Source: Bacillota bacterium (lineage in GTDB: Bacteria > Bacillota > Clostridia > Christensenellales > SZUA-584). From it: a stretch of DNA of 64,000 bases. Made by a program: the position numbers and the translations under genes. Shown piece by piece: positions 22,304 to 41,654 of the stretch. The stretch is from positions 50,842 to 114,841 of the forward strand of contig JAEWTW010000057.1 in NCBI GenBank assembly GCA_023397655.1, given 5' to 3'. Within the stretch, counting starts at the first letter, position 1. Each line of letters opens with the position of its first letter. The notes beneath the pieces were generated by a model. It worked only from the letters and a program-made list of their open reading frames with translations. It was not told the origin of the DNA and searched no databases.

Positions 22304-22334
22304 GGCCGCCGCCGCAAGGCGGCTTTTTTGTTTT
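22304..22334 (+). terminator. Rho-independent terminator marking the left edge of the toxin island
   Basis: GCCGCC-GCCGCAA-GGCGGC followed by TTTTTTGTTTT. Confidence 0.75.
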
Positions 22335-22395: not shown

Positions 22396-22794
22396 ATGGA
22401 TATGCAGATTGATGTAACGCAGCTCATTATCGCGGCGGCGGGGCTGGTATTTTCCGCGGTGATCATACCGCTGGTGAAGGCGGCTTTCACCTGGCTGAAG
22501 GGTAAGACGGAGAACGAGGCGCTGCAGGCCGCACTCGGCGAGGCGCAGGCGCTGGCGGACACCGTGGTGGCGAGCCTGCAGCAGACGGTGGCGGAAGGGC
22601 TGAAAGAGAGGTCGACCGACGGCAAGCTGACCGCCGACGACGCGCGGGAGGTGGCTGACCTCGCGGTGGAGATGTTCCTTTCCGACCTGTCCGCAAAGTC
22701 GCTCGCGCTGCTGGAGGACAACGCCGGAGACATCATCGCGTATGTGAGCAACCTGCTGGAAGCGCGCCTGCTGCGCCTGAAGGAGGGGAAGTAA
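22396..22794 (+). CDS. LL-H-family holin-like protein (N-terminal TM plus helical tail)
   Basis: ATG 22396 follows AAAGGAGGA. LIIAAAGLVFSAVIIPLVKAAF is the TM, followed by an Ala/Glu/Leu-rich helical tail (QQTVAEGLKERSTDGKLTADDA...GDIIAYV...LEARL). The layout matches Phage_holin_6_1/LL-H holins from memory. Confidence 0.55.
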   Translation: MDMQIDVTQLIIAAAGLVFSAVIIPLVKAAFTWLKGKTENEALQAALGEAQALADTVVASLQQTVAEGLKERSTDGKLTADDAREVADLAVEMFLSDLSAKSLALLEDNAGDIIAYVSNLLEARLLRLKEGK

Positions 22795-23367
22795 TTGTCG
22801 GACTGGGATGAGCAAATCAAGAAGCAGCATGAAGCGCAGCTGAAGGCCCAGACCAAACAGCTGGAGTCCAGCTACGGACAGAACCGTCAGGACTACGGCA
22901 GGCAGATCGTTGAGGCGGGCGAGCAGTATCAGACGGTGCGCAATCAGGCGCACGCCGACAACGCGATGGCGGAGCAGGCGCGCCGGGAAAACATGGCCAA
23001 CATGGGAATGTCGGGCGCGGGCGGAACCTCGCAGACTCTGCAGCAACGCAATCAGACAGCACTGCTGGACACCATGGGCGACACGAACCGGCAGCAGCAG
23101 GACTATACCGACAACATCAAGCTGGCGCTGGGCAACCTCACGACGAAGTATGAAGCCGATATGTTTTCCGCGCAGCAGCAGACGACAGCGGAAGAGCTGG
23201 CAGCGAAGACGGCAGCCGACCAGTGGCAGCGCCAGTTCGGCCTCAGCCAGCAGCAGTTTGACCTGACCCAAAAGAACAGCGCGTTTGACCAGGCGTGGGC
23301 GTTGTATCAAAAGCGCCGCATCACCAAGAAACAGTTTGAACAGATGACCGGCTATAAGCTGAGGTAG
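22795..23367 (+). CDS. Gln-rich coiled-coil protein, a stand-alone paralog of the toxin N-terminal domain
   Basis: The TTG start abuts the holin stop and follows GGAGGGGAAG. It aligns along its length with residues ~80-180 of the 1504-aa toxin (GDT.RQ...DN...AL..L ... QQQ..L..KNS.FDQ...LY.KR....F..MTG.K). Confidence 0.6.
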   Translation: MSDWDEQIKKQHEAQLKAQTKQLESSYGQNRQDYGRQIVEAGEQYQTVRNQAHADNAMAEQARRENMANMGMSGAGGTSQTLQQRNQTALLDTMGDTNRQQQDYTDNIKLALGNLTTKYEADMFSAQQQTTAEELAAKTAADQWQRQFGLSQQQFDLTQKNSAFDQAWALYQKRRITKKQFEQMTGYKLR

Positions 23368-23376
23368 GAGGACGGG

Positions 23377-26300
23377 ATGGCGAAAAACGAACCATTACAC
23401 GACAATGAGCTGAGAATTCAGCGCGGCACGCTGGACGACAACCACAGCGCGGACACCCGTATGTACCGCGACATGCTGGCGGACAGCGACGCGGCGTATG
23501 AGGCGCTCAAAACGCAGGCGCGCATCGACAGGGCCCTCTCTGAGCTGGCGGGGGGCCCTGCCCGCTCCTCCGCAACGCTGAAAGCCCGCGAGATGAGCGC
23601 GCTGCGCAACGAGCTGGGCGACACCGAACGGCAGCACGAGCGCTTCGCCGACAACGTGGACTACGCGCTGGCGGGCCTTGCCCGCAAAAAGGACGCGGAC
23701 GAGGTGGTCGCCGAGAACATGAGCATTGCCCGTCAAGCCGCCGCGGAGATCAACCAGGGCAAATTCGACGCGGAGCTGAACCTGCAGCAGCAGTACCATG
23801 ACCTCAACAAGAAGAACAGCGTGTTCGACCAGATGTATAAGCTGTATACCAAGCGGCTGGTGGGCAAGGACGCGTTCAAGGCCATGACGGGCATAAAGGT
23901 GAAGGCGATGCCGAAGCCAAAGGTACATCATGCACCTAAGCCGACAATCATTTCAATGGGCAGCAAAGAGCCGGCAGCGCAGGCGGGGTACACCGTAAAG
24001 ACTGCCTATCATCCGATGACGGGGGCAAAAACATACTATTTGGTCAAAAACGAAACCGCAAAAGGCATGGACGAAAACGGCGTCAGCTTGCAGGACAAAA
24101 CTGGAAAGGTGAAGGCAGAACCTGAATTGTATTTGGAGGTGAACATTGACGGATATAAGGACGCGGACAGCGCTGAGCAGCTGGCAATCATTCAAGAGAA
24201 TAAAGATGATATTGTTGTACGCTACGGTGAAGATTTTTATAAGTTGCTGACGTCACATCTGACGACAATGGACATAGTTGAGCAGGTATATGATCCGGCA
24301 GATGTGTGGGCGATCGGCTCAGCGTTCAATCAGTTGCTTCTGGCATCAAACGACGATGAATGGCAAGCTGCTGCCGAGGGGTATAAAGCGGCGGTAGACA
24401 CTGGCGAAGAAAACCTGAGGAATACGTATAAAGGTGAGCCAAGCTGGAGTAAAACTATTCAGCTTATACCTGATATGGAGGAATTCCAATATGATGAGAG
24501 CAATTTAGACGACAAGAGAAGAAAGTATGCGGACAAGCCGCCGGCTGCGGTAACGAGCGAAGCGCTGGCAAGCAAATTCAAAGAACGCTTTGGGGTTCTG
24601 GACGGAGACCCGCTCAAGGATGCGTTTGATGAACCCGAATTGGCGGCGCTAAACATCGACTGGTCCCAACTTTCGGTTGATCAGCTGCTGGCTGTTGGCA
24701 CGTATTTGTCTGCGAACCAAACTAAAGGGGGAAGCACAACAGAAACTGATGAGAAGTTAGACCAGCTGATCCAGGAAGGAAAGAACATATTTGAGGTTGT
24801 TACATATCGGTATATGGACAGCGTCATACAAGTCAGGAATTCGATGGAGGACGACGAAACAAGGAAGAAGCGCCAGGAAGATGAAAACGAAAGGATAATG
24901 TGGGGCGATCTTTCGACTCAGGATAGATTTAACAACGCGGTGGCGGACATTAAACAATACCAGAAAGATTATCAAGAATATACCTTCTATGTGAATTACG
25001 ATGTTGATGCCGCGAAACAGGAATTGGATGATACGAATGAGCAACTGAATGATGCGGCATCGGATCTTTTAAACTTTATGGACAATGAAGGTTATGGTGA
25101 AACCAAGAGGGTGCTTGGTTTATCGGATGAAGCTTTTAATGAAATCAGAGGAAAAATGAATGCTAATAATGATTTTGAAGCGCTAAAGACTTTTAACAAT
25201 CTGATAGATGCGATGGATATGTATCAAGATCAGGCGAATCTAATTGAGACAGATATCATTATGGCGGAAGAATGGAAGAAGAGGGACAAAAAGTATAAGT
25301 ACGAAGATGGCATCCTCGGGATGGAAGATTTAACCGCGACATCCCTGCAAGGCGCACAGATAAAGAATCCAAAAGTCATTGATTTAATGTTTGGAACCGG
25401 CGAAGTAAAAAATGTGTATGTATTCGCAAGTTTTCTGAACAGCGACACGGTAATGGACGAGCTGATGAGCGCTGAGGTCGGCGAACGCGGAGGTGATACC
25501 GAAGACCTGTATGAATGGATAGAAACGCAACGCGTCATTTATGAGAAATATACATACATGACGGATACTGAAAAAACCGTTTACAACTACCTGCTAAAAA
25601 AAGAAGGTGATTCCAGCGCTAATGATTATCTGAAAATGATCGATGAATCGCTGAATATGAGGCAGGGCTTGGCTGAAGCTTCGGCGCTGGAAGGCAAGCC
25701 GGTGGCACAGGTATTGTACAGTTTTGGCGCAGGTCTTGACAGCTTTGGATCAGGCATCCGGCAGCTGTTTTCCAGCGACAGGCTATCCACAACTGCCACG
25801 CAATTTGCCTCAAATGCGATATATCAAGATCTGGCGGGCGACGACCCCGACAGCGTGAGTTTTGGACAGCTGCTTTATAATACAGGCAACATGGCCGGAT
25901 ATATGGCGCCCGTCATATTATTGAATGTCGCGACGGCTGGTACGACAATTCCGGCGACTGTTACTGCGCAGATTGGCTCTACAGTGATGGCATTGAGCGC
26001 CACGGGCAATGCCTATAATCAGGCGCTGGGGCAAGGCTATACGAAGGGAGAAGCACGGCTTGAGGCACTACTCACCGGGCTGTATACTTACGCGACCAGC
26101 CAGGCTATGTTCTCCGGGCTGCAGAAGGTGGTGGGATTAGCGTCGGGAATGACCGGAGCTACTTTTGGGCAGCAAATTGCAAAATTAGCTGTGTTGACTT
26201 TCGGTTCGATGGAAGTAGCATTTACAAGAGGGACGCAAATCACGCTTGTTAAGAACATTGCTGAGGCACTACTGATGGGAGACAAGTCTGGATTTGCGCA

Positions 26301-27891
26301 ATCCATTGCAATGTATCAGAATCGTGGGTTTAGCCAAAAAGAAGCGACAGGGCTGGCTTTCATCGACTGGTTTTTTACCAATCCGCTCGAAACCGGTGGT
26401 AAAATGGGCGCAATGGCGGGGCTCTCCGTTTTCCCGGCTGCCGCAAGAACGGCATACGGTGCGATGAACGCAGCTGGTGAACAGATATACGGGCAGCCTC
26501 TGCTGACAGCGGGTGGGCAGACAGCAGGTGCGGCACAGAACTCGGCTGCATCCACAGCCTCTGCTGCCTCTACAGCATACCCCGCGTCTGCCACTTCCAC
26601 CGCGCTGACGCCGGTCTATGGCGGAACGTCAATGCCCTTACAGCCGTTTACAGGAACGGCGCCTGAACTGACGGCAATCGGCGCAGGGGGATACGCGGGA
26701 CGCACGAGCATGCCTCAAACGAACGGCACATATGACAACACGCCGATGTTGCCCGCAGGTTTCAGGCAGATGGGACTGAGCGATGATGCCGCGGATTTCG
26801 CAGCTAAACTGGATGCTTATCTGATGAAGCTGCCAGCTCCGAAGAGCGACGGCAAAGCACCTGAAGAGCTTACACCCTACACAGGCGGGCTGACCCTGCC
26901 GCCAGCGGCCGCCGCCATAAAAGCGCCGTCCAACGTGGCCAGAGGCGTGGGCGACACAGCCGAAGAACTGCAGGCGCTGTCGGACAAAACATCGCTTGAC
27001 CTGTTTGACGAGAACGTGCGGAACAAATATTTCGGGTTCGCGCTGGACGGCACGCTGGGCAAAGCCAAATCGATGTATGACGCCTCCCTTCAAAGCCTGG
27101 AAAACGGCATAGCGCAAAGCGCGCCGCAGCCCGCGGCGGAGCTGATGCAGCAGGCGGATGTGGTGGAGAGGCGGCTGGGCGAGGTGTATGAGGCAGCGGG
27201 AGTAAGCAAAGGCTATTCTCCTGAAACGAACACATCACAACCACAGATTACATCGGACCCCCCCGCCACAGACGTCGGCACCCTGTTCAGCGACTATTTC
27301 GACGCCATCGGCGCGGACGAGATGCCGCCGTTTGCTGAGTTCGGGAAGATGTACCGCAAAGGTGGGGACGCGTGGAAGGAGCTGACGCTGAAGAAGGGCT
27401 GGAAGGATGCGCTGAAGAGCGGCGAAGTTGAGCCTTTTACGCGGTTTGAAGACTATAAGGCGACGGCGGGCGTGGACGGAAATGGAGGAATGGGATATAA
27501 TGAAGGGCAAGAGTTTTCCGAACGTATAGAGTTTAACCTTGTTGAAATTGTTGATTCTGATACAGGAAAGTTCATAATAAAGGATTGGAGTGAATATCCA
27601 GATGATTACGTTCCATTACCTGACAAATCTAAAGTATGGGTATTCGTAGAGGGAGAGGAATATGAACAATCAAGGAAACAAGCAAATGAGGTTAATAAAA
27701 ATTTGAGATTGGGAGATCGTTATTACAGCGATAATAGATTGGAAATTCACGAGATAGAACCTGTTAAATTTGGCGGTAGTCCAACAGATTTAGCTAATAA
27801 GGCTGCTATTCAAGGACAGGTTCATAGGAAATACGTTACTCCGTGGTGGAATAAAATACGAGATGAAATAAAGAGAGGATTGGATAAATAA
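23377..27891 (+). CDS. Polymorphic toxin, 1504 aa: novel N-terminal coiled-coil domain, AT-rich middle, Gly/Ala-rich hydrophobic region, pre-toxin region, HNH/EndoVII-type nuclease tip
   Basis: RBS GGAGGA. No signal peptide (MAKNEPLHDNELRIQRG). The tip motif is LEIHEIEPVKFGGSPTDLANKAAIQGQVHRKY. An immunity gene follows 4 nt downstream. Several internal segments are copied in the downstream cassettes. Confidence 0.85.
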   Translation: MAKNEPLHDNELRIQRGTLDDNHSADTRMYRDMLADSDAAYEALKTQARIDRALSELAGGPARSSATLKAREMSALRNELGDTERQHERFADNVDYALAGLARKKDADEVVAENMSIARQAAAEINQGKFDAELNLQQQYHDLNKKNSVFDQMYKLYTKRLVGKDAFKAMTGIKVKAMPKPKVHHAPKPTIISMGSKEPAAQAGYTVKTAYHPMTGAKTYYLVKNETAKGMDENGVSLQDKTGKVKAEPELYLEVNIDGYKDADSAEQLAIIQENKDDIVVRYGEDFYKLLTSHLTTMDIVEQVYDPADVWAIGSAFNQLLLASNDDEWQAAAEGYKAAVDTGEENLRNTYKGEPSWSKTIQLIPDMEEFQYDESNLDDKRRKYADKPPAAVTSEALASKFKERFGVLDGDPLKDAFDEPELAALNIDWSQLSVDQLLAVGTYLSANQTKGGSTTETDEKLDQLIQEGKNIFEVVTYRYMDSVIQVRNSMEDDETRKKRQEDENERIMWGDLSTQDRFNNAVADIKQYQKDYQEYTFYVNYDVDAAKQELDDTNEQLNDAASDLLNFMDNEGYGETKRVLGLSDEAFNEIRGKMNANNDFEALKTFNNLIDAMDMYQDQANLIETDIIMAEEWKKRDKKYKYEDGILGMEDLTATSLQGAQIKNPKVIDLMFGTGEVKNVYVFASFLNSDTVMDELMSAEVGERGGDTEDLYEWIETQRVIYEKYTYMTDTEKTVYNYLLKKEGDSSANDYLKMIDESLNMRQGLAEASALEGKPVAQVLYSFGAGLDSFGSGIRQLFSSDRLSTTATQFASNAIYQDLAGDDPDSVSFGQLLYNTGNMAGYMAPVILLNVATAGTTIPATVTAQIGSTVMALSATGNAYNQALGQGYTKGEARLEALLTGLYTYATSQAMFSGLQKVVGLASGMTGATFGQQIAKLAVLTFGSMEVAFTRGTQITLVKNIAEALLMGDKSGFAQSIAMYQNRGFSQKEATGLAFIDWFFTNPLETGGKMGAMAGLSVFPAAARTAYGAMNAAGEQIYGQPLLTAGGQTAGAAQNSAASTASAASTAYPASATSTALTPVYGGTSMPLQPFTGTAPELTAIGAGGYAGRTSMPQTNGTYDNTPMLPAGFRQMGLSDDAADFAAKLDAYLMKLPAPKSDGKAPEELTPYTGGLTLPPAAAAIKAPSNVARGVGDTAEELQALSDKTSLDLFDENVRNKYFGFALDGTLGKAKSMYDASLQSLENGIAQSAPQPAAELMQQADVVERRLGEVYEAAGVSKGYSPETNTSQPQITSDPPATDVGTLFSDYFDAIGADEMPPFAEFGKMYRKGGDAWKELTLKKGWKDALKSGEVEPFTRFEDYKATAGVDGNGGMGYNEGQEFSERIEFNLVEIVDSDTGKFIIKDWSEYPDDYVPLPDKSKVWVFVEGEEYEQSRKQANEVNKNLRLGDRYYSDNRLEIHEIEPVKFGGSPTDLANKAAIQGQVHRKYVTPWWNKIRDEIKRGLDK
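23798..23919 (+). repeat. Recombination anchor A (codes DLNKKNSVFDQMYKLYTKRLVGKDAFKAMTGIKVKAMPKP)
   Basis: Near-identical nucleotide copies lie at 40697-40819 (cassette 10) and 41948-42096 (terminal remnant). Confidence 0.85.
27058..27503 (+). repeat. Recombination anchor B (pre-toxin region ending in GVDGNGGMGYNE)
   Basis: Copies lie at 29527-29966 (cassette 3, full length), 28425-28548 (cassette 2, with an internal ~160-nt deletion) and 30886-30950 (cassette 4, 5' part only). Confidence 0.85.
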
Positions 27892-27895
27892 TACT

Positions 27896-28312
27896 ATGGA
27901 ATTTCTAAATGAAGATCTCTTTAAGAATTTCAATTTTCAAAGAGATGAAAAAAATACCGAAAGTCAAATAGGTAATGCCGAATTAGAGTTAGGAATTAAG
28001 TTTCCTGAAGGGCTTAGAGGTATTTTAAAACAATACAATGGAGGTAGCGGACAAATTGGGAAATCCTATTTAGATTTATGGAGTTTGGAAGATATTGTAG
28101 ACTTCTATCAAGAAAACATGGAAACTGATGCATATATTTTAGTACCGTTTGCCTCGGATGGTTGTGGTATGTCCTTTACTTTAGTTAAAGAAAATACAGA
28201 AATTAGAATTGTACCGATGGATTCTTTGGAATATGAGTATTCAAAAAAATGTAGTAATAATTTTGATGAATTTATTAATGAAGTGTATTCTGGCAACCTA
28301 GTAGAATACTAG
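27896..28312 (+). CDS. SUKH/SMI1-KNR4 family immunity protein (cognate of the HNH tip)
   Basis: 138 aa and AT-rich. LELGIKFPEGLRGILKQYNGG ... LVPFASDGCGMSF is typical of the SMI1_KNR4 fold. Confidence 0.8.
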   Translation: MEFLNEDLFKNFNFQRDEKNTESQIGNAELELGIKFPEGLRGILKQYNGGSGQIGKSYLDLWSLEDIVDFYQENMETDAYILVPFASDGCGMSFTLVKENTEIRIVPMDSLEYEYSKKCSNNFDEFINEVYSGNLVEY

Positions 28313-28391: not shown

Positions 28392-28511
28392 CTTTAAACG
28401 GAATTTGAAATCAAATGAAGATAAAACAAACACACCGGCTGAACCTTCCACCCCAAGCCCCCTGCCACAGACGTCGGCACCCTGTTCAGCGACTATTTCG
28501 ACGCCATCGGC

Positions 28512-28898
28512 GTGGACGGAAAGGGGGCAATGGGATATAATTCATTTGATAAGTCAAATCAAGGAATAGTAAGACCTCAACAAGTTAAGAAGTTAATAGA
28601 TTGGCTAGATAATGATAAAGAATTGTTAAATGAAGTTTCAGAGTGGTTTAAGGAAAAACCAGAATGGTGGGGAATTGATCCGGAGAATACTGATGTGTTT
28701 TATAGACCACCACAAGAAGTAAAAGAGATTAGATCAAAAGCAGGCGAAAGCGGAGGGCATCATCCACATGGATTGGCACTTGGAGGGCCAGAAGGACAGA
28801 GACTTACCCCGACAGGTGAAACAGCAATGATAAAGAATCCAACACATAGCCAAGTAACCGGTTTGCAAAGACGCGTACTTAATAGAATAAAAAAGTAG
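28512..28898 (+). CDS. Orphan toxin tip, cassette 2: GHH-type HNH/EndoVII nuclease
   Basis: GESGGHHPHGLALGGPEGQRLTP...NPTHS motif. It is preceded by an anchor-B copy from 28425. It has no RBS of its own, and the 'start' is an in-frame GTG inside the anchor. Confidence 0.7.
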   Translation: MDGKGAMGYNSFDKSNQGIVRPQQVKKLIDWLDNDKELLNEVSEWFKEKPEWWGIDPENTDVFYRPPQEVKEIRSKAGESGGHHPHGLALGGPEGQRLTPTGETAMIKNPTHSQVTGLQRRVLNRIKK

Positions 28899-28925
28899 AT
28901 TATAAAATAGGAGGAGACAAACAAG

Positions 28926-29411
28926 ATGTGTAATGATTTTATTTACTGGGCTAAAGATCATGGATGGGATATAGTTATTAAATCTGATGCTCTTCTTGAA
29001 TTAAACAATAACATTACTTCAAGATATGGAAGTATACCTCGTAGCTATATTAAGTTTTTAAAAAAGGTTAAGAGATGCATATCACCTGGTGAGAAAACAT
29101 GGTTTTTATGTGAAGACGAGTACAATAATAACTCGGATATAGCATTTAAATGGAACGAATTTGAGATATTAAGTCTTGAAGTAGCCAAGAATGATAATGA
29201 GTGGAAATATGAAATAGCCTCATGGTGGGATAGGTACTTACCAATAGTTTTGTCAGTTGATGATGGATATTCTTTCTTCGCTATTGATTTAGCGAATGAT
29301 ATAGGGACTATCGTACAAGGATTTGAACCTGAATTCGAAGAGGTGGAGAAAATAGCAAATAGCCTAGAAGATTTTTTCAGATTAATTATGAGTAATGCTA
29401 TTAAAATTTAA
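28926..29411 (+). CDS. SUKH/SMI1-KNR4-like immunity protein (cassette 2)
   Basis: RBS GGAGGAG. 161 aa and AT-rich. YGSIPRSYIKFLKK ... YLPIVLSVDDGYSFFAID pattern. Confidence 0.7.
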   Translation: MCNDFIYWAKDHGWDIVIKSDALLELNNNITSRYGSIPRSYIKFLKKVKRCISPGEKTWFLCEDEYNNNSDIAFKWNEFEILSLEVAKNDNEWKYEIASWWDRYLPIVLSVDDGYSFFAIDLANDIGTIVQGFEPEFEEVEKIANSLEDFFRLIMSNAIKI

Positions 29412-29488
29412 AAACAAAAAATCAATGCTTTAATAATGCGTGTGAAGCGGTAGATAAGGAGAACTATAACTAGTTAATATAATACTTC

Positions 29489-29517
29489 GCCGGGCGTTGC
29501 CCCGGCTTATTTTTTTG
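29489..29517 (+). terminator. Cassette-boundary hairpin terminator 2
   Basis: GCCGGG-CGTTG-CCCCGGC followed by TTATTTTTTT. Confidence 0.7.
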
Positions 29518-29537
29518 CCATCGGAAAGGCCAAATCG

Positions 29538-30331
29538 ATGTATGACGCCTCCCTTCAAAGCCTGGAAAGCGGCATTGTGCAAAGCGCGCCGCAGCCCGCG
29601 GCGGAGCTGATGCAGCAGGCGGACGTGGTGGAGAAACGGCTGGGCGAGGTGTACAAAGCGGCGGGAGTGGGAAAAGGCTATTCGCTGAAAACGAACACAT
29701 CACAACCACAACTTACATCGGAAGCCTCCGCCACAGACGTCGGTACCCTGTTCAGCGACTATTCGACGCCATCGGCGCAGACGAGATGCCGCCGTTTGCG
29801 AAGTTCGAGAAGATGTACCGCGAAGGCGGGGACGCATGGGAAGAGCTGTCGCTGAAAAAGGATTGGAAGGATGCGCTGAAGAGCGGTGAGGTTGAGCCTT
29901 TTACGCGGTTTGAAGACTATCAGGCGACGGCGGGCGTGGACGGAACGGGGGGAATGGGATATAATGAAACCGTCAATGTTGATACATTTGACTTTGGCAA
30001 ATACCTGAGGGGTAAGATTGGGGATCCGCCTGCTGATATGGCTGACCCGCACGCCCATCACATACTTTTCAAAAAAGGGCTTGGACCTGCGCAGCAAGCG
30101 TTGGTTCAAGAAGGACAGGCGATTTTGTGGCGAGTTGGAATTAATCCAACCTTCGGCTTAGAGAACCTAGTGTGGGCGCCGAACAGGGTAGTGGGGCAAC
30201 ACGATATTGAAGCGCTGAGAAATGTTTTGAAGCAGTTGAGAGAAGTGGAGAAATATGGTGGAGATTATGATGATATGAGTGAGGCACTGAAAAAACTGGG
30301 TGATCTTGCGGCCAAAAGGAGGAAAAGCTAA
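29538..30331 (+). pseudogene. Orphan toxin tip, cassette 3: AHH-type HNH/EndoVII nuclease, frameshifted within the anchor
   Basis: ORFs 29538-29855 and 29786-30331 are one reading unit split by a missing T (GACTATTCGAC at ~29757-29767, versus GACTATTTCGAC in the main gene). The tip motif is DPHAHHILFKKG. Confidence 0.7.
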
Positions 30332-30832
30332 ATGGATTTGTTACCAGTTGCAAAGGAAATAAGAACTGCAATAAAGCAAGGAGATGCTGAAAAGGTTAAG
30401 GAGTTAATTGCGGATAATAAAGACCTTTTAAATTTACTGACTCCGTTCGGCACTTGGGTGCATGTTGCTTCGTCCCGAGGAAAACTAGATATTGTGATAC
30501 TCCTTATAGATATGGGTATCGATATAAATATAAGCGCAGGTATGTTTGGAGGGACAGCAATTAATGAGGCGGCAAATGAAGGAAATCTCGAAATTGTAGA
30601 TTATCTGCTTTCTTGTGGTGCTAAATTGGACACATCTGAGCCAGAAAAGAATCCTCTATTTAGTGCAATATTGAGTGGGAATAAAGACATAGTCCAACTA
30701 CTGCTGAACAACGGGATTGACGCTTCCGTCAGGTATACAGGGGAATATATGAAAGATATGGATGCTTATGATTTTGCCATAGAGCGCGGGCAGAAAGAAA
30801 TTGCCGAAATGCTGAAACCATACAGGAAATAA
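30332..30832 (+). CDS. Ankyrin-repeat immunity protein (cassette 3)
   Basis: ATG abuts the toxin TAA, and the RBS AAAGGAGGAAAA lies inside the toxin 3' end. Ankyrin units: GTWVHVASSRGKLDIVILLIDMGIDIN, TAINEAANEGNLEIVDYLLSCGAKLD, NPLFSAILSGNKDIVQLLLNNGID. Confidence 0.8.
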   Translation: MDLLPVAKEIRTAIKQGDAEKVKELIADNKDLLNLLTPFGTWVHVASSRGKLDIVILLIDMGIDINISAGMFGGTAINEAANEGNLEIVDYLLSCGAKLDTSEPEKNPLFSAILSGNKDIVQLLLNNGIDASVRYTGEYMKDMDAYDFAIERGQKEIAEMLKPYRK

Positions 30833-30851
30833 GACCAGAGTATTTGAATTT

Positions 30852-30879
30852 GCCGGGCGTTGCTCCGGCTTATTTTTTT
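30852..30879 (+). terminator. Cassette-boundary hairpin terminator 3
   Basis: GCCGGG-CGTTG-CTCCGGC followed by TTATTTTTTT, nearly identical to terminator 2. Confidence 0.7.
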
Positions 30880-30974
30880 GCCATCGGCAAAGCCAAATCG
30901 ATGTATGACGTCTCCCTTCAAAGCCTGGAAAGCGGCATTGCGAAAAGCAGCTCACCGCCGAAACGATCGATGGA

Positions 30975-32528
30975 GTGATAGAATCGGGTACGCTCTCGCA
31001 GGAGGAAACCGACACTTTAAAGACGATCAAAGCCCAAATCAACGCTACCGGCATCAATCCCGATGTTGTCAATCCTGTCACAGATGTAAAGACCGGCGAC
31101 ATCACCGCCCCGTATATCGTCAACATCGACGCCTATGTGGAAAGCATGGCCGCGCTTAACGCTATCGCCGGCTTTGCGCCTGCCGCGATACGCGGCGGAG
31201 CGGACGCGGCGGCACAGGGTGGAGATGCGTGGGATATCATATCCGGTTCGCTGATAGACGGTACACTTGCTGCAATATCTTTCGGAGGAATCGCGGGCGC
31301 GGCGGAGAATGCCATGGGCTCGCTGCTCGCTAAGGCGCCGGGGCTCATCAGGGCGGCAGCGCCCGCCATTACGGCTGTGACTGGCGCTACCGTGGCGGCG
31401 GTTGCCAACACGGGGTTTAATATCATCACAGACGCGATGCGCGGGCGCGACATCGACTGGGAGCAGCAGGCCGCCAGCCTGGGCATAGACTTCCTGTTCG
31501 GGCTGTTTACACGAGGTAAAAACGGCAACACCTATACAGACCCGCAGACCGGCAAGCCCATCGACATCCCCGACGGCAAAATGCTGGCAGATGTGAACCC
31601 TGAAGCAGCCAGCTTTTACAAGGGGCTGGGTGACACCAAGGTCACCGGCGGACTGGACAACGCGATGGGGGATATCTATATGAATTATATGGATATACCG
31701 GAAAGCGTGGTGTCAAGAAGCGGCTTTGAGGATTTCCGGACGGCATATTATATCTATGACGGGAACCCAACGATAGCGAACGCTGCGGCTTTCCTAAAAG
31801 AAGCGTCAGAGATATATGACATGCCCGGTGTGACGAAATATACCTTTGACCCGCAGAGAAAGATCAACGCCGCCATGGAAGCAGATTTCAATGCCAAAGT
31901 GAGCGGAATGCTGGACGAGGCATATGCTGCAGGCGAGGTCGGAATGCCTGCGGGAGAGTTCGCGCAAGACAAAGGCGTTCCCGGCACATTGACAGATGCG
32001 GACGCGGCTGGCTTGACGATGAAGATGGACGGAGATGGGAACGGGGGGTATAATGGTGGAGATGGAAATGCTGAAGGTGCGAGTAAGATAATTAAAACTC
32101 TTCCCCAATATGCACCTGATCCAAATGCCGTTCCAATGGGGCAAAAAACAAAGATCAGCCCAAACTGTGATTCAGAAACTACCAGATCTTTGACGAGGGA
32201 AAATGAATCAGCGGACATCTTAGCTAAGAAAGGATATGCTATTAAACAAAATCCTAAAGTGGACGGTTCTAAAAAGCCCGATTATAAAATTGGCGAAGAA
32301 GTCTTCGATAACTATTCACCGAGCTCAAATAAAAGTCCAAGGGGAATTGCTAGTGAAGTAAAAAGTAAAATTGAAAAAGGACAGACAGAAAGAGTAGTGT
32401 TAAATTTGTCCGATTGGAAAGGGAACATTAATGATTTAGTCAAACAGATCAAAGACTGGCCAATAAAGGGGTTGAAAGAGTTGATAGCAATAGATAAAAA
32501 CGGAAACGTTTATCATCTGTTCCCATGA
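30975..32528 (+). CDS. Orphan long alternative C-terminal arm, cassette 4: Gly/Ala-rich hydrophobic segment, second pre-toxin region, PD-(D/E)xK-like nuclease tip (tentative)
   Basis: 517-aa ORF. The frame is actually open from ~30909, but it is +2/-1 relative to the anchor-B copy at 30886-30950. Tip: ENESADILAKKGYAIKQNPKVDGSKKPDYKIGEEVFDNYSP...GQTERVVLNLSD, resembling CdiA-CT/Tox-REase-type domains. Confidence 0.6.
   Translation: MIESGTLSQEETDTLKTIKAQINATGINPDVVNPVTDVKTGDITAPYIVNIDAYVESMAALNAIAGFAPAAIRGGADAAAQGGDAWDIISGSLIDGTLAAISFGGIAGAAENAMGSLLAKAPGLIRAAAPAITAVTGATVAAVANTGFNIITDAMRGRDIDWEQQAASLGIDFLFGLFTRGKNGNTYTDPQTGKPIDIPDGKMLADVNPEAASFYKGLGDTKVTGGLDNAMGDIYMNYMDIPESVVSRSGFEDFRTAYYIYDGNPTIANAAAFLKEASEIYDMPGVTKYTFDPQRKINAAMEADFNAKVSGMLDEAYAAGEVGMPAGEFAQDKGVPGTLTDADAAGLTMKMDGDGNGGYNGGDGNAEGASKIIKTLPQYAPDPNAVPMGQKTKISPNCDSETTRSLTRENESADILAKKGYAIKQNPKVDGSKKPDYKIGEEVFDNYSPSSNKSPRGIASEVKSKIEKGQTERVVLNLSDWKGNINDLVKQIKDWPIKGLKELIAIDKNGNVYHLFP
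31498..31700 (+). repeat. Recombination anchor C (codes FGLFTRGKNGNTYTDPQTGKPIDIPDGK.LADVNPEAASFYKGLGDTKV...)
   Basis: Nucleotide-level copies start at 33173 (cassette 5), 35700 (cassette 7), 37213 (cassette 8) and 38632 (cassette 9). Cassettes 5, 7, 8 and 9 stay similar to each other further downstream, up to NAAMEADAA. Confidence 0.8.
31835..32065 (+). repeat. Recombination anchor D (codes TKYTFDPQRKINAAMEADFN...DGDGNGGYNGG)
   Basis: A copy lies at 34592-34822, immediately upstream of the cassette 6 tip. Confidence 0.8.
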
Positions 32529-32543
32529 AAGGAGTAACATATT

Positions 32544-33044
32544 ATGGCTATAAATTATACATTATTGACTCAGAGTAAAGAATTAACTAGTGAAATGCTT
32601 ATGCATCAATTAAGAAATATTGGTATGATGTGTGATGAACCAATTATATTAGAAAAAGGTATAGAAATAAATCAATTTCAGAATACAATTGGGCTTACTA
32701 TTTATTTAATTGACTCGGGAAATCCACCATATGATGCTTATGATTTTGATTTATTAAGCAAGGAATTTAAATATTTGAAATCTTTAAGTTTCAGATTAAA
32801 CAAAGATTTTGAAGATTCAGAAATTCAATGGAAAGCAATGATCACTATTGTTTTTTCTTTGATGAACCAAGTAACAACAAATGCAATTTTTGCATTTGAG
32901 ACAGACATCCTCTACTGCTTGTTTACAGAAAAACATGAATTATTTATTAATTCTCAAACAGGCATCAAGGAAAAACCTTATTTTCAAGAATATTCAAATG
33001 GTTGGAAATGTAATGATATTACAAATAGTATTATTGATTTTTAG
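32544..33044 (+). CDS. Putative immunity protein (cassette 4), family unassigned
   Basis: RBS AAGGAG. 166 aa and strongly AT-rich. The assignment rests on its position directly after the toxin tip. Confidence 0.6.
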   Translation: MAINYTLLTQSKELTSEMLMHQLRNIGMMCDEPIILEKGIEINQFQNTIGLTIYLIDSGNPPYDAYDFDLLSKEFKYLKSLSFRLNKDFEDSEIQWKAMITIVFSLMNQVTTNAIFAFETDILYCLFTEKHELFINSQTGIKEKPYFQEYSNGWKCNDITNSIIDF

Positions 33045-33129
33045 AAATGTGGATATATTTCACTAAATAGGGAATTTGAATTTCATTCTTTAAAAATATT
33101 TAAATGTAAATTTATTTATACACCTGCGC

Positions 33130-33156
33130 GCCGGGCGCTGTCCGGCTTTTTCTTTT
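33130..33156 (+). terminator. Cassette-boundary hairpin terminator 4
   Basis: GCCGGG-CGCTGT-CCGGC followed by TTTTTCTTTTC. Confidence 0.65.
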
Positions 33157-33206
33157 CTTGACCCCAAAATCGCATCGACATCCCCGACGGCAAAACACTG
33201 GCGGAC

Positions 33207-34121
33207 GTGAACCCCGAAGCGGCCAGCTTTTACAAGGGGCTGGGCGACACAAAGGTCACCGGCGAGCTGCACAGCGCCATGGGGGACATCTACATGAATT
33301 ACATGGACATCCCCGAGAGCGTGGTGTCCAACGCGGAATTCGCACCGCTTGAGACAGCCTACCGCAACTACGAAGCGAACCCGACGGTAGCGAACGCGGC
33401 TGCTTTTATTGATGAAGCCGGAAAGGTGCAGCGCATCGCGAGCGGCAATGGGTATAACGTGGACAGCCCGAATGTAAAGGTTAATGCGGCGATGGAGGCG
33501 GATGCGGCAGGATTAGGGGCGCAGTCTGAGATTGGCGTTGAGGCCACTGACATAGGGGCAACAGCAAAAGATATCGGAGCCGGTGCTATGGACATCGGGA
33601 AGAATGCGGCGGATATTGGAGCAACTGCCAAGGCATATGTTGACAGCGAGAATGGCGTGGGGGATAATGGAAGTGGAAAAGTTACAGGAATTATTGATGG
33701 CATTAAGATCATAGACGGAAAAGTTGGCGGAAAGATTCCGTTAGATGAATTTAAGTCGATAAGGAAGCTATCAATTAAAAACCCTGATGCTGATTCTATG
33801 ACTTTAGGTAGATATACTCATGGAAAGGATTCTTACATTCAGAGAGCAGGAACCAACTCGTCCTACTTCGATTTGGGAAATGATTGGAAAGCACTAAAAA
33901 CAAATTACAACCTCACTGATCAAGAGTTGTTTGAGCTTTTTAATGTAGTTGCATTGGAAGAGGCATTAATAAAAGGAAAGACTCTCCGCTTTTCCCATAA
34001 TCCTTTGGATGACAGCAATAGAAAGACGTTCTTATTTCAAGAGTGGAAATATATTAAAAAACGACTATTCTTGAATGATAAAAATCTATTTTATGACGGA
34101 GGATTCTGGTATGTTGGATGA
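33207..34121 (+). CDS. Orphan toxin tip, cassette 5: unassigned toxin domain
   Basis: Anchor C copy, then four DIG repeats, then the AT-rich tip from ~33690 (TLGRYTHGKDSYIQRAGTNSSYFDLGNDW...LRFSHNP). The 'start' is an in-frame GTG within the anchor, with no RBS. Confidence 0.6.
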   Translation: MNPEAASFYKGLGDTKVTGELHSAMGDIYMNYMDIPESVVSNAEFAPLETAYRNYEANPTVANAAAFIDEAGKVQRIASGNGYNVDSPNVKVNAAMEADAAGLGAQSEIGVEATDIGATAKDIGAGAMDIGKNAADIGATAKAYVDSENGVGDNGSGKVTGIIDGIKIIDGKVGGKIPLDEFKSIRKLSIKNPDADSMTLGRYTHGKDSYIQRAGTNSSYFDLGNDWKALKTNYNLTDQELFELFNVVALEEALIKGKTLRFSHNPLDDSNRKTFLFQEWKYIKKRLFLNDKNLFYDGGFWYVG

Positions 34122-34452
34122 TGAAGCAAGGGAAAATATAAGAATAGTAAGAAAAATAGCAGAAAATATATGGGATGGAAAATGTAGCTTTGGTGATATA
34201 AAAGTTACCAATTCACCATACGCTGAATTTATAATGCCATTGATTCTTTATAATAGCGTTAACGTAATACTGACATATGATCGCTCTATATTAGGAATTG
34301 CAATTAAGCAGGAAGGAGGAGAAATATGGCTAGATGATTTAACTACTCAGTTAGTTTATGATGGTTTTGAGAGCTGCAAGCCAGAAAACATAGAACATAA
34401 TTTTAAAATATTGGATACGATAGCTCGGGAAATAATTAATAGAGAAATTTAA
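34111..34452 (+). CDS. Putative immunity protein (cassette 5)
   Basis: ATG 34111 follows GGAGGA and overlaps the toxin stop (34119-34121) by 11 nt. 113 aa and AT-rich. Confidence 0.6.
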   Translation: MLDDEARENIRIVRKIAENIWDGKCSFGDIKVTNSPYAEFIMPLILYNSVNVILTYDRSILGIAIKQEGGEIWLDDLTTQLVYDGFESCKPENIEHNFKILDTIAREIINREI

Positions 34453-34629
34453 ATAAATAAGTAAATAACATTTACAGCCTGAGTTATTTTATATTAACGC
34501 AGGCCTTTTTTATCTAAATTGGGAGCTAATCACCGTGAACGCAGGAACGAAATTTGTTTTAACGATATTAAGGGTCAGTAAGAGTGTGTAACATATACCT
34601 TTGACCCACAGAGGACAATCAGCGCCGCT

Positions 34630-35304
34630 ATGGAAGCGGATTTCAATGTCAGAATACGCGGTATGATGGACGAAGCATATGCGGCGGGCGAGGGCGGATT
34701 ATCTGCGGGAGAGTTTGCACAAGGCAAAGGCGTTCCCGGCACATTCACGGATGCGGACGCGGCTGGCATGACGATGAAGATGGACGGAGAGGGGGATGTT
34801 GGGTATAATGGAGGGCAAGGAAATAAAGATGTATTACCTGATGCTTTAATTCGCGGAGATGATATGCCTTATTCTGAAAAGAGGCCAAATGGTATATCAA
34901 AGTCTCATTTAACATCTGAGGGTGATCTTGCTCCTGCAAACATTAAAGGACAGTATAAAGGAAGAATGGTCACGGTTGCAGAACATATTCTCGGTGGCTA
35001 TAGGAAAGGGGCTAAGGGAAATAGCCCGTATACGAGTTTTACATATGAGGACGGGATTGTAACTAATTATGGGAACAATGTTATCCAAGTCAATTTAAAG
35101 GAGATCATTGATGATATTGTGAATGGGAAACTCAAAGGTGTTGAGGTGTTGACTCCAAGCCATGTACAAGCCGCAATTCTATCTGACGTCCAATTAAACG
35201 ATTACTGGAGAAATCTAGCTATAAAATGGACTAGGAGAGATAATGAGTGGCTAATAAAGGGCATGATACCCAGAAAATACTTAACAATAATGGAGGACGC
35301 ATAA
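34630..35304 (+). CDS. Orphan toxin tip, cassette 6: possible ART-fold (H-Y-E-like) toxin
   Basis: Frame is open from 34582. An anchor D copy is followed by a tip with AEHILGG, SPYTSFTYEDG and RRDNEWLIKGMIP. The ART assignment is tentative. Confidence 0.5.
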   Translation: MEADFNVRIRGMMDEAYAAGEGGLSAGEFAQGKGVPGTFTDADAAGMTMKMDGEGDVGYNGGQGNKDVLPDALIRGDDMPYSEKRPNGISKSHLTSEGDLAPANIKGQYKGRMVTVAEHILGGYRKGAKGNSPYTSFTYEDGIVTNYGNNVIQVNLKEIIDDIVNGKLKGVEVLTPSHVQAAILSDVQLNDYWRNLAIKWTRRDNEWLIKGMIPRKYLTIMEDA

Positions 35305-35579
35305 TGGAAATCTTATTTAAAAAAGAAACGATAGGCAAGATAGAGAATACATATAGAGAAGATTACTGGGTACACGGCAATTTCATCCCATATATTTCAT
35401 ATTTGAAGTATAAAGATTTTCTCGATGCGGTTGTTTGTGAAGATGGGATGGACGAAACTCAATTCGATAAAGCGTTACTGGACGAGAAAAATTGGTTTAT
35501 TGTAGATAGAGATGAACTCAAGGAGATATGGATACCAGCTATTTACGCTGACGGCGATATATCAATTAGGTATAGATAA
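35304..35579 (+). CDS. Putative immunity protein (cassette 6)
   Basis: TAATG overlap with the toxin stop. RBS GGAGGA. 91 aa. Confidence 0.6.
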   Translation: MEILFKKETIGKIENTYREDYWVHGNFIPYISYLKYKDFLDAVVCEDGMDETQFDKALLDEKNWFIVDRDELKEIWIPAIYADGDISIRYR

Positions 35580-35635
35580 AGCCGGTCTCTTCTTCAATAA
35601 TCAGTACAAAACCTAATAATATATAAATTTAATGA

Positions 35636-35666
35636 AGCTGGAAAAATTAAAACTCCAGCTTTTTCT
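35636..35666 (+). terminator. Cassette-boundary hairpin terminator (after cassette 6)
   Basis: AGCTGGA-N11-TCCAGCT followed by TTTT. Confidence 0.55.
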
Positions 35667-35828
35667 TATATCTTCGCTAACATGAACAGAACCTTTTAGT
35701 TCGGGCTGTTTACACGAGGTAAAAGCGGCAACACCTATACAGACCCGCAGACCGGCAAGCCCATCGACATTCCCGACGGCAAAACGCTGGCGGACATCGA
35801 CCCCGAAGCAGCCAGCTTTTACAAAGGC

Positions 35829-36674
35829 TTGGGCGAAACGCGAATGGATGGCGAACTGCACAATGCCATGGGAGACATATATTTGAGTTATATGGATATT
35901 CCCGAAAGTGTGGTGTCACGCTCGGAATTCGCACCGCTTGAAATAGCATACCGCAACTACGAAGCAAACCCGACGGTAGCGAACGCAGCAGCTTTTATCG
36001 ATGAAGCCGGGAAGGTGCAGCGTATAGCGGTTGGTAATGGGTATAGCGTGGACAGCCCGAATGTGAAGGTTAATGCGGCGATGGAGGCGGATGCGGCGAA
36101 GCGGTTGGGGACGGCTGGTGCATATTCTGAGCGCGTTGACAGTTTCGCAAATATAGAAGATAATAACAATAAAAATATTGGTGTGTTAAAGAAGAAAAAT
36201 GTTACCCAAGTTGCATATGGCGAGCAATATATTAAAGGAAAGAATGGACGAAAAGAACTAAAATCCAATGTAGCTTATACGACTGCTGATGGTTACAAAT
36301 ACTCGACGGATGAACTTGGGCGTATTGATGAAGCGGACGGAATGCTTGTCAGAGGCGATGGCAAAAGAAATGAGTATGCGCAAAGTATCATTGGTCGAGA
36401 AGATAGACTGCCAACGGATGATGGAGGGCATCTTATTGCCAGAATATTTAAAGGTTCTGGGGATATTGACAATCTGGTGCCAATGGATGCGACATTAAAC
36501 CGCGGTGATTGGAAGGCAATGGAGAATACATGGAAAAGGGCACTTGATGAAGGTGGCGAAGTGAGAGTAAAAATTAGACCTATTTATGAAGGCTCATCAA
36601 CAAGGCCAGTTTCTTTTGTGGCAAAGTATAGTATTGAAGGACAAAACATGAAGATTGTTGTATTTGATAATTAA
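35829..36674 (+). CDS. Orphan toxin tip, cassette 7: EsaD/YeeF-type DNA/RNA non-specific endonuclease (Endonuclease_NS_2)
   Basis: DDGGHLIARIFKGSGDIDNLVPMDATLNRGDWKAMENTWKRALDEGGEVRVKIRPIYEGSSTRP is a close match to the EsaD/YeeF-CT pattern. The anchor C copy starts at 35700. Confidence 0.8.
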   Translation: MGETRMDGELHNAMGDIYLSYMDIPESVVSRSEFAPLEIAYRNYEANPTVANAAAFIDEAGKVQRIAVGNGYSVDSPNVKVNAAMEADAAKRLGTAGAYSERVDSFANIEDNNNKNIGVLKKKNVTQVAYGEQYIKGKNGRKELKSNVAYTTADGYKYSTDELGRIDEADGMLVRGDGKRNEYAQSIIGREDRLPTDDGGHLIARIFKGSGDIDNLVPMDATLNRGDWKAMENTWKRALDEGGEVRVKIRPIYEGSSTRPVSFVAKYSIEGQNMKIVVFDN

Positions 36675-36684
36675 GGAGACAAAA

Positions 36685-37155
36685 ATGATTGATGAAAGAA
36701 ATCTAACAAAATACTATCAAAGTATTGCTGAGAAATTAGATGATATAGTTCCTTTCGAATGGGACGAGATAGTTATGTATGGTGAAGAATTTGGAGATGT
36801 CAGAACTGCTTGTTTGTACTATAAACAAAAAGGAAAAGAAAATTATAGATCAGGCGGGCTAATTCCAAGTGAAAATTCTGTAGATGCTGATATTTATGCA
36901 GGATTAGTATATGAATTGATTCAAATAAATAAAAGATTGTGGAAAGAATTTTTGGATGCAGAGATACCGTTATGGGTAACAATTACTTTTCATTTATCCT
37001 CCGATTATCATTTTAAAGTTAAATTTGGATATGAAGCAAATAGGGAATTAAGCAGTACAGAACGAGAAATACACTGGGCATATAATGAGCTTGGGATAAT
37101 ACCTGAAGATGGTTTTTCCAAAAAAATACTTGAAGAATACTTATCTGGAAATTAA
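36685..37155 (+). CDS. DUF600/YezG(EsaG)-family immunity protein (cassette 7)
   Basis: RBS AAGGAG. YYQSIAEKLDDIVPFEWDEIVMYGE...ACLYYKQ matches the DUF600 N-terminal pattern. This family is the known partner of EsaD/YeeF-type nucleases. Confidence 0.75.
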   Translation: MIDERNLTKYYQSIAEKLDDIVPFEWDEIVMYGEEFGDVRTACLYYKQKGKENYRSGGLIPSENSVDADIYAGLVYELIQINKRLWKEFLDAEIPLWVTITFHLSSDYHFKVKFGYEANRELSSTEREIHWAYNELGIIPEDGFSKKILEEYLSGN

Positions 37156-37176
37156 ATAAGGATACTAATGCTTGTA

Positions 37177-37210
37177 GGCCGGAGAGAAAAACTTTCCGGC
37201 TTTTTTATTT
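37177..37210 (+). terminator. Cassette-boundary hairpin terminator (after cassette 7)
   Basis: GCCGGA-GAGAAAAACTT-TCCGGC followed by TTTTTTATTT. Confidence 0.7.
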
Positions 37211-37267
37211 GCTGACCCGCAAACCGGCAAAGCCATAGACAGCCCCGACAGTAAAACGCTGGCGGAC

Positions 37268-38230: not shown

Positions 38231-38240
38231 GAGGCTGTTT

Positions 38241-38549
38241 ATGGAAAAAAAATTGATTGAAGCTTTTGAACATGACTATGTAGAATACCATTTTGTTGAA
38301 TTTGATGATGGTATGGACTTTATCAGAATCACAGAGATCATAAAAGACAAAATTGGTCCGGATAAAATGGATTACCAAGGAATTGAAGATATGCATGGTT
38401 TTTTTGAGAAAGATAACCTCCATGTTGATTTAGAATACGATGGAATGATCGGTAATTGGATGGAGTTTAAAGGCGAACAATCGGAAAGAAATTTGGAAAA
38501 AGTAAGAGAATGGGCAAAAATAGTATTTGAAAACTTGATGGAAGTATAG
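38241..38549 (+). CDS. Putative immunity protein (cassette 8)
   Basis: ATG 38241 follows AGGAGG. 102 aa, acidic and AT-rich. Confidence 0.6.
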   Translation: MEKKLIEAFEHDYVEYHFVEFDDGMDFIRITEIIKDKIGPDKMDYQGIEDMHGFFEKDNLHVDLEYDGMIGNWMEFKGEQSERNLEKVREWAKIVFENLMEV

Positions 38550-38590
38550 AACTTAATTAGTTCCTTTCTGCCGTAAAATGGCTTTTATAT

Positions 38591-40257: not shown

Positions 40258-40278
40258 CAATAGAAAGGAGAGCTACCT

Positions 40279-40632
40279 ATGTCAATGTCTGAAATGTATC
40301 AAAAGCTTAAGAACAATACAATAAATAATGATGAGCTTATTACTTGTCTTAAATCCGAAAACTATAGAATAGTAGCAATATCGATATCAAGATTAATCGA
40401 AAGGAATATAAGTAATCAAGATGCAGTTAGTAGACTCGAGAAATTAAGCAATCTTCTATCAAACAGTAAATTTGTCGGGCCATGGCAAATGGGGCATTTT
40501 GCTATAGCTGCCTTACTGTTACTAAAAAACAATAACGTAGAAAATAGAGCAAAAGAATTATATGATAAACTTAGCGAAAAAGATAAGTTTTTAGTTGATA
40601 ATTTTATTAAGGCAGAAGCCTACAAACTCTAA
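40279..40632 (+). CDS. Putative immunity protein (cassette 9)
   Basis: RBS AAAGGAGAG. 117 aa, AT-rich and helical. Confidence 0.6.
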   Translation: MSMSEMYQKLKNNTINNDELITCLKSENYRIVAISISRLIERNISNQDAVSRLEKLSNLLSNSKFVGPWQMGHFAIAALLLLKNNNVENRAKELYDKLSEKDKFLVDNFIKAEAYKL

Positions 40633-40651
40633 CGTATTAACTATTTCTATG

Positions 40652-41641: not shown

Positions 41642-41654
41642 AAAGGAGTAAAAT

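Follow-up and report, generated by a model that had tools for sequence, protein, structure and literature searches.

The 64,000-nt stretch of contig JAEWTW010000057.1 (assembly GCA_023397655.1, an uncultured Christensenellales-like Bacillota; here called the window) carries a polymorphic toxin operon that opens with a phage-type holin gene. The operon encodes a single-pass holin-like protein, a free glutamine-rich helical-hairpin protein, a toxin of 1504 amino acids (aa) whose N-terminus is a paralog of the hairpin protein, and an immunity protein. The best explanation, held tentatively and with slightly less than even confidence, is that the phage-derived pair of holin and hairpin protein releases the toxin, with the toxin N-domain as a constant address module. 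This reading draws on the coupling and strict linkage of the genes, on the retention of the N-domain upstream of a recombination joint (anchor A), and on hairpin proteins that carry LysM domains without a signal peptide.

Structure of the toxin operon

The features of the locus, with coordinates in the window, strand and evidence, are:

22304..22333 (+), terminator-like hairpin with a T-run; GC-rich stem and T tail, closes the HbpS-like gene upstream and forms the 5' boundary of the operon
22396..22794 (+), holin-like gene, 132 aa; PHROG matches, hydropathy, family alignment, homologs beside phage endolysins
22795..23367 (+), gene of the free Gln-rich helical-hairpin protein, 190 aa, TTG start; BLASTP paralogy to the toxin N-domain, AlphaFold2 (AF2) model
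23377..27891 (+), toxin gene, 1504 aa; open reading frame (ORF)
23377..23931 (+), toxin N-terminal hairpin domain, residues 1-185, constant module; BLASTP against the free paralog, family comparison
23789..23918 (+), anchor A, recombination joint at the end of the N-domain; blastn repeats at 40694-40818 and 41964-42093
23932..24276 (+), post-anchor region, residues 186-300; kept in most toxins of the family (P0004, P0005, P0214, L007, P0232) and in orphan cassettes
25549..26616 (+), central Gly/Ala-rich, weakly hydrophobic conserved region, residues 725-1080; common to the toxin and giant phage proteins
27550..27891 (+), variable C-terminal toxin domain, residues 1392-1504; phrog_24166, E = 6e-21, HNH-like by eye only
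27896..28312 (+), SUKH/SMI1_KNR4 immunity gene; PF09346, E = 1.9e-15
28400..42100 (+), array of orphan toxin C-termini and immunity genes with two more copies of anchor A; ORFs, domain matches, blastn

The ORF list placed the holin-like, hairpin and toxin genes where the original prediction had put them. Their tight coupling ahead of the immunity gene, also predicted, was confirmed at the gene junctions. A ribosome-binding site (AAGGAGGA) lies upstream of the holin-like ATG at 22396. The stop codon of this gene (TAA, 22792-22794) directly abuts the TTG start of the 190-aa gene at 22795, which in turn ends with a TAG at 23365-23367. A GGAGGA precedes the toxin ATG at 23377, and the SUKH gene is next after the toxin. 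The orphan array covers ~14 kb and ends ahead of a GH3 glycosidase gene at 42202.

The hairpin TAG and the toxin ATG, separated by 9 nt, share a frame in the window (23365-23377) and in the homologous loci L001, L002, L010 and L013. A programmed read-through of the TAG from hairpin to toxin was rejected because the shared frame is not conserved: the two genes are in different frames in L007, L012 and L019.

Constant and variable parts of the toxin

The toxin has no recognisable export or trafficking domain, in agreement with the original prediction. The full sequence had no match to Pfam or NCBIfam at E ≤ 0.1 and has no signal peptide; hydropathy analysis revealed no N-terminal hydrophobic segment in either the toxin or its free paralog. 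MuF, portal-binding and LPD domains were not matched by Pfam, and a PDB sequence search with residues 1-689 returned nothing. The sole clear PHROG match is to the C-terminal 110 residues (the phrog_24166 match listed above), a domain without a Pfam match or a PDB sequence match. Only five relatives were found with toxin residues 1-1100 in a word-indexed search of 5.8 billion proteins.

The toxin family consists of four blocks: the N-domain (1-185), the region 185-300, the conserved Gly/Ala-rich and weakly hydrophobic region 725-1080, and a variable C-terminal tail. An AF2 model of residues 690-1090 from 8 sequences reached a predicted local distance difference test score (pLDDT) of 40.6 and was unusable. 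The DNA of anchor A (23789-23918) is repeated at 40694-40818 (92.8%) and 41964-42093 (91.5%), each time heading an orphan cassette; orphan cassettes in L002 and L003 begin with the segment as well. The post-anchor region is present in the window orphan at 40733-41641 as well. The repeats at the cassette heads uphold the earlier placement of anchor A at the end of the N-domain: everything after residue ~185 is exchangeable, and the N-domain is constant.

The locus follows the rules of polymorphic toxins, with a constant N-terminus, a variable C-terminus, an immunity gene next to the toxin, and orphan cassettes. L001 and L002 share synteny with the window, including GGDEF, MerR and Fe-ADH genes upstream. 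They carry the same trio of 130-aa, 190-aa and ~1500-aa genes, followed by differing C-termini and immunity genes (AHH-like with Ank; SUKH). Other toxins of the family end in Ntox15 or TNT domains and have their own immunity genes and orphan arrays. Altogether, homologs have AHH-like, Ntox15 or TNT C-termini, and Ank, Tdi1 or Imm63 immunity genes.

Linkage of the holin and hairpin genes

A survey with one genome per species found 25 loci, 22 of them with downstream DNA. All but one are in metagenome-assembled genomes (MAGs) labelled Christensenellales, Christensenellaceae, Clostridia or Bacillota (24/25); the other is labelled Burkholderiales. Wherever upstream DNA exists, the holin-like gene immediately precedes the hairpin gene; this applies to all 25 species-level loci and to all loci from ENA/Logan. 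The complete trio of holin, hairpin and toxin recurs in 14 loci (window, L001, L002, L007, L010-L013, L015, L019, L020, L027, L119 and L126), which establishes the free paralog and the holin-like gene as non-accidental neighbours of the toxin. L119 and L126 were retrieved starting from the toxin, and again the order was holin, hairpin, toxin. This reverse test is small: a metagenome scan with toxin-specific patterns gave one locus.

Among the 22 genomes with downstream DNA, 8 have the trio with an N-domain toxin. In toxin-less pairs, both genes are under purifying selection, with ratios of non-synonymous to synonymous substitution rates (dN/dS) of 0.04-0.24 at a dS near saturation. Where a toxin is linked, the hairpin gene has evolved faster (dN/dS 0.20-0.38 versus 0.04-0.08). 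In this lineage, holin and hairpin genes do not occur apart; they form a pair under selection that is no longer attached to an endolysin.

The neighbourhood of toxin-less pairs is conserved and without phage genes in L005, L016, L018, L021, L023-L026 and L031. Genes for a 541-aa PRK-like, a 92-aa and a ~415-aa TPR-like protein are located upstream; DUF975 and helix-turn-helix (HTH) genes are located downstream.

A different context is seen in L004 (CAXXTQ010000001, 3.09 Mb), where positions 3102-10618 are prophage-like. In order, it encodes an NlpC/P60+PG_binding_1 protein and a 616-aa DUF6973 protein with two ~150-aa genes. These are followed by a 475-aa gene, 79- and 101-aa genes, and then the holin-like and hairpin genes, with the host feoA gene adjoining the pair. 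The holin-hairpin pair may originate at such prophage ends.

The free hairpin protein and the toxin N-domain

The original prediction had aligned the 190-aa protein with toxin residues ~80-180. The paralogy is far beyond chance, but its extent is larger: residues 12-190 align to toxin residues 8-176 with 32% identity (E = 3e-30, BLASTP against toxin 1-300). The whole free protein therefore corresponds to the whole N-domain, and the two may pair with each other.

The fold of the free paralog is predicted as a long helical hairpin of no known family. The AF2 model, built on an alignment of 31 sequences, has a pLDDT of 88 and consists of helices 2-69 and 79-172, a Gly-rich loop between them and a short C-terminal helix. 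The free paralog has 57 close relatives, and an exhaustive profile search found 334 cluster representatives. The loop motif RRENMANMG[LM]SGAGGTSQT is retained by free hairpin proteins, whereas the loop of toxin N-domains, L[ST][DE]LAGGPA, is seven residues shorter. The loops fall into two conserved classes, and the N-domain is a differentiated paralog. Several free hairpin proteins begin with a single LysM domain or two of them and lack a signal peptide.

The hairpin family has no match in Pfam, NCBIfam or functionally annotated PHROGs. A fold search of the PDB with Foldseek gave generic coiled coils as best matches at insignificant E-values of ~0.4-3, including the R-domain of colicins E3/E9/E2, IpaB and Vipp1; a PDB sequence search with the hairpin profile gave nothing relevant. 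A PspA/Vipp1-like hairpin with a small membrane anchor was rejected, with no Pfam match and a Foldseek E-value of 1.8. Foldseek against BFVD retrieved homolog-like uncharacterised gut-phage proteins (E = 2e-3, template modelling score 0.66), one of them named LysM, and also weak matches to 'internal virion protein'. An hhalign comparison of the hairpin profile with T7 gp14 was negative (probability 0.1%), so the likeness to internal virion proteins is only a weak lead at the fold level.

A phage-type holin family

The holin-like protein has one N-terminal transmembrane segment at residues ~7-29 (Kyte-Doolittle hydropathy up to 2.4), followed by Lys/Arg. Its C-terminal domain of ~100 aa is an acidic, helical tail according to hydropathy and the family alignment, and is predicted to be cytoplasmic by the positive-inside rule. 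Relatives begin at the second Met (130 aa).

The protein matches the PHROG holin families 36209 (E = 3e-9) and 13712 (E = 1.6e-7). The designation as an 'LL-H-type holin-like' protein was half supported: the PHROG matches and the transmembrane segment with a charged tail characterise it as holin-like, but the LL-H type is unproven. The window protein did not match PF09682 (Phage_holin_6_1), and the 7 of 22 relatives that touch this model do so at E-values of 0.006-1, no better than chance matches. The TcdE and BhlA models of Pfam were not matched either, and the family as a whole is without Pfam or NCBIfam annotation.

Homologs are present in 78 viral loci. The phage contig L041 (65% identity) encodes tail fibres, a PG_binding_1+NlpC/P60 endolysin, a 100-aa protein with a C-terminal transmembrane segment, the holin, and a repressor on the opposite strand. 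In other phage contigs, PG_binding_1+NlpC/P60 (L117), Amidase_2 (L066) or glucosaminidase (L081) genes are located directly upstream of the holin homolog. These positions beside endolysins identify a real family of lysis-cassette holins.

Relatives in phages and giant polyvalent proteins

Distant relatives of the hairpin protein are encoded in six phage loci (L009, L035-L038 and L123). The gene follows capsid and tail-fibre genes and directly precedes a gene for a giant protein of 1250-2456 aa (in L035, it is two genes before); lysis genes are next. This gene order resembles T7 genes 14-15-16. Three of the giants carry LPD38, ART-PolyVal, LPD23 and PBECR3 domains and a fourth carries RadC-JAB, and on the basis of these domains these giants are 'polyvalent proteins'. 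Such proteins are believed to enter the virion and to be injected along with the DNA (PMC5512222). The L009 giant shares 32% identity with toxin residues 728-901, and the L038 giant matches the hidden Markov model of the central region (E = 4e-9). Some parts of the toxin scaffold have relatives among phage proteins. Cultured-phage genomes gave no tblastn match for the hairpin protein, two of its phage relatives, P0244 or the holin.

The compact (pro)phage stretch in L123 (8001-16270) encodes capsid and tail genes, a 514-aa hairpin protein and a 1812-aa giant with a Gly/Ala-rich hydrophobic stretch. Genes for 121-aa and 60-aa transmembrane proteins, an NlpC/P60-like endolysin and a serine recombinase follow; the order is that of T7 genes 14-16 and then lysis. 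Small dockerin-domain proteins are encoded in hairpin-bearing phage or prophage-like regions at L009 7538-7876 and L004 2697-3062.

Proposed mechanism and alternative explanations

The delivery module of this polymorphic toxin system would be assembled from phage parts. The toxin would exit its producer cell via the holin or as a consequence of it, through a non-lytic lesion or because a sub-population lyses. This would resemble the action of TcdE, TpeE and TcsE on large clostridial toxins, or that of UviB on Bcn5. Holin-dependent release of signal-less clostridial toxins and of the Bcn5 bacteriocin is a precedent (PMC9527704, PMC8878733, PMC12150058). The N-terminal hairpin would act as the address by binding the free paralog and/or the cytoplasmic tail of the holin, and only proteins with an N-domain would be released. 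The free hairpin protein itself probably crosses the membrane, since LysM-hairpin proteins have no signal peptide. After release, the hairpin and the Gly/Ala-rich central region might help the nuclease domain to pass the wall and membrane of the target. This speculative role is suggested by relatives of both next to or within giant virion-delivered phage proteins. By recombination at anchor A, orphan cassettes can replace everything past the hairpin domain. The complete route, an uncatalogued Gram-positive one with a domesticated holin and hairpin as release device, the N-terminal paralog as address, and the hairpin and phage-derived central region as an ejectosome-like entry module in the target, is doubtful in its full extent and clearly less probable than release and addressing alone.

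Several observations weigh against release by the pair. In 14 of the 22 genomes with downstream DNA, the pair has no adjacent toxin and must therefore have some other or wider role. P0228, a second full-length toxin downstream of the array of another toxin, has no holin within 6 kb. Neither an endolysin nor a TcdR/UviA-like sigma factor is encoded at the toxin locus. The phage homologs of the holin are never near a hairpin gene: none of the 78 viral loci has a hairpin gene or the toxin central domain within 6 kb. Phage relatives of the hairpin gene are instead beside giants, which points to a role in the virion. Binding among N-domain, paralog and holin, export of the toxin and the other functional steps past gene linkage are inferred from sequence and gene order, within the narrow host range of Christensenellales-like MAGs.

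The phage relatives of the hairpin and the central region open the main rival explanation, delivery by a particle. Both would be internal-virion or ejection modules, the toxin would be packaged in trans into a podovirus-like particle encoded elsewhere and injected, and the holin would only lyse the producer. The T7-like order of the six phage loci from capsid and tail fibres to hairpin, giant and lysis genes agrees with this, as do the three giants with polyvalent domains, a class held to be packaged and injected (PMC5512222), the central region shared by the L009 and L038 giants, and the BFVD matches to gut-phage and 'internal virion' proteins. However, the chromosomal, phage-free context weakens the explanation. 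The genes around the locus are ordinary chromosomal genes (precomputed Pfam annotation, 64 kb). Phage structural, type VII secretion system (T7SS) or contractile-injection genes were not found within the window, and phage structural genes, T7SSb genes (essC, esaA, essB) and Lap/WXG100 genes were absent from both the window and the syntenic loci. The pair resides in a stable chromosomal neighbourhood across species under purifying selection, and immunity genes with orphan arrays are typical of chromosomal competition loci. The comparison with T7 gp14 was negative, and the toxin has neither a MuF nor a portal-binding domain. A particle-borne toxin is considered unlikely. The hairpin may also act on the side of the target: the holin would merely free the cell contents, and N-domain and free paralog would be a rod for receptor binding or translocation, similar to the colicin R-domain, and not an export address. 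The modelled long helical hairpin, the colicin and IpaB coiled coils among the top Foldseek matches, LysM fusions consistent with wall binding, the requirement of nuclease toxins for an entry device, and the faster evolution of the free paralog in toxin-linked loci (dN/dS 0.2-0.38 versus 0.04-0.08) suggest such a function. The Foldseek E-values of 1-3 are, however, not significant and generic for coiled coils, and the strict holin-hairpin linkage in toxin-less genomes is left unexplained. As a replacement for the export address, the rod is a little less probable than the particle; a role of the hairpin at the target is compatible with the best explanation.

Export by a type VII-like route would make the N-domain a very divergent LXG domain and the paralog a Lap/WXG-like helper, with a T7SSb encoded elsewhere and an unrelated holin-like gene. 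A ~190-aa helical domain at the N-terminus of polymorphic toxins and a small helical partner gene upstream fit this arrangement, and L-x-G tripeptides are visible by eye in both hairpin loops (LAG, LSG), a weak indication. Against it, PF04740/LXG, WXG100, DUF3130 and DUF3958 gave no match at E ≤ 0.1, PDB searches gave no sequence or fold match to LXG-Lap complexes, and essC, esaA and essB were not found within 64 kb. The holin linkage of 100% argues in the same direction, and LysM fusions and phage relatives are not T7SS traits. The type VII route is unlikely, more so than either the particle or the target-side rod. It has equal standing with a coincidental association, which we consider similarly improbable. 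Holin and hairpin would then be a domesticated lysis or regulatory pair (holin-antiholin or programmed lysis) at a prophage end, and inserted cassettes would have captured the hairpin by fusion, not for trafficking. The many genomes with a pair and no toxin, the L004 pair that closes a prophage-like region with an NlpC/P60 endolysin, and the L041 holin as last gene ahead of the repressor would be in agreement. However, every full-length toxin has kept an intact N-domain with a conserved loop of its own. Recombination of orphan cassettes takes place downstream of the N-domain, which is thus retained under selection, and the three genes are translationally coupled.

Comparison with known toxin systems

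Release of the toxin by holin and hairpin would have its closest parallels in TcdE-TcdA/B, TpeE-TpeL, TcsE-TcsL and UviB-Bcn5. In these systems, too, a signal-less large toxin or bacteriocin is encoded with a phage-derived holin that is (semi-)detached from a lysis cassette, and TpeE is likewise a single-transmembrane holin (PMC9527704, PMC8878733, PMC12150058). The locus in the window differs by a holin of another family, without a TcdE/BhlA match, and by the lack of an endolysin remnant and of a TcdR/UviA sigma factor as present in the PaLoc, TpeL and Bcn5 loci. Immunity genes and orphan cassettes accompany its cargo, a polymorphic interbacterial toxin, and an extra obligate hairpin partner is a paralog of the toxin N-terminus. 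We know of no such address domain for the large clostridial toxins.

The original prediction had compared N-domain and paralog with LXG and Lap proteins of the T7SSb. The systems share a ~200-aa N-terminal helical domain, a small helical partner encoded upstream, and a variable C-terminus with an immunity gene. The proteins studied here differ in matching LXG, WXG or Lap neither by sequence nor by fold, in having a helper that is truly paralogous to the N-domain, and in being linked to a holin as membrane protein and not to a T7SS component. Their family also has phage relatives and LysM fusions. With no LXG, WXG or T7SS feature found, the comparison is an analogy only.

MuF-toxins and polyvalent phage proteins (Zhang 2012, PMC3482391; Iyer 2017, PMC5512222) also contain modules of phage origin; the toxin central region is homologous to giants, and hairpin relatives adjoin proteins with LPD38, ART-PolyVal and PBECR3 domains. 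The toxin differs from them in having no MuF domain, in its chromosomal location without portal, terminase or capsid genes, and in its polymorphic-toxin architecture, in which a single variable C-terminus is combined with an immunity gene and with orphan cassettes. Colicin operons likewise combine a signal-less nuclease-type toxin that contains a long helical hairpin with an immunity gene and a dedicated release gene. Here, in contrast, the host is Gram-positive, the release gene is a holin and the first gene of the operon, the hairpin is at the N-terminus and has a second copy in the form of a free protein, and the fold similarity is insignificant. Two other polymorphic-toxin systems do not apply: S8-PTS uses signal peptides (PMC9424270), and the toxin has no PT-TG match (PMC13483458).

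The 2012 catalogue of trafficking modes of polymorphic toxins has no holin-linked mode, and the proposed route, if true, would be its ninth (PMC3482391). Among the papers searched, none connects Christensenellaceae with polymorphic toxins. Toxins linked to holins and polymorphic toxins are both known kinds; what is new here is that they are combined, together with a hairpin helper paralogous to the toxin N-domain and a phage ancestry. The route would also connect interbacterial toxins with the giant polyvalent or ejected proteins of gut phages, which are poorly understood. To our knowledge, how large signal-less toxins exit Gram-positive cells has not been settled even for TcdA and TcdB, and no address of a holin substrate is known. 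N-domain, free paralog and holin are three small, genetically separable parts, which makes substrate selection by a holin directly testable.

Other features of the window

The operon has HbpS-like, Fe-ADH, MerR and GGDEF genes as neighbours. A 2024-aa ORF at 2106-8180 (+) may encode a giant surface protein; its counterpart in L039 (1939 aa) has faint Beta_helix_3/Invasin_D4 matches. An Imm5_like immunity-type gene, mapped from L039 to ~12474-13064 (-), is located ~10 kb from the toxin locus and has no adjoining toxin. A trio at ~54.9-58.3 kb (-) looks like a defence or counter-defence cluster, encoding an LRP1-like beta-propeller, a TIR_2 protein (56373-57443) and an Anti-Pycsar Apyc1-like metallo-beta-lactamase (57483-58217). 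Two leucine-rich repeat (LRR) proteins and an LRR-bearing Ser/Thr kinase are encoded in a row at 45314-48874 (-).

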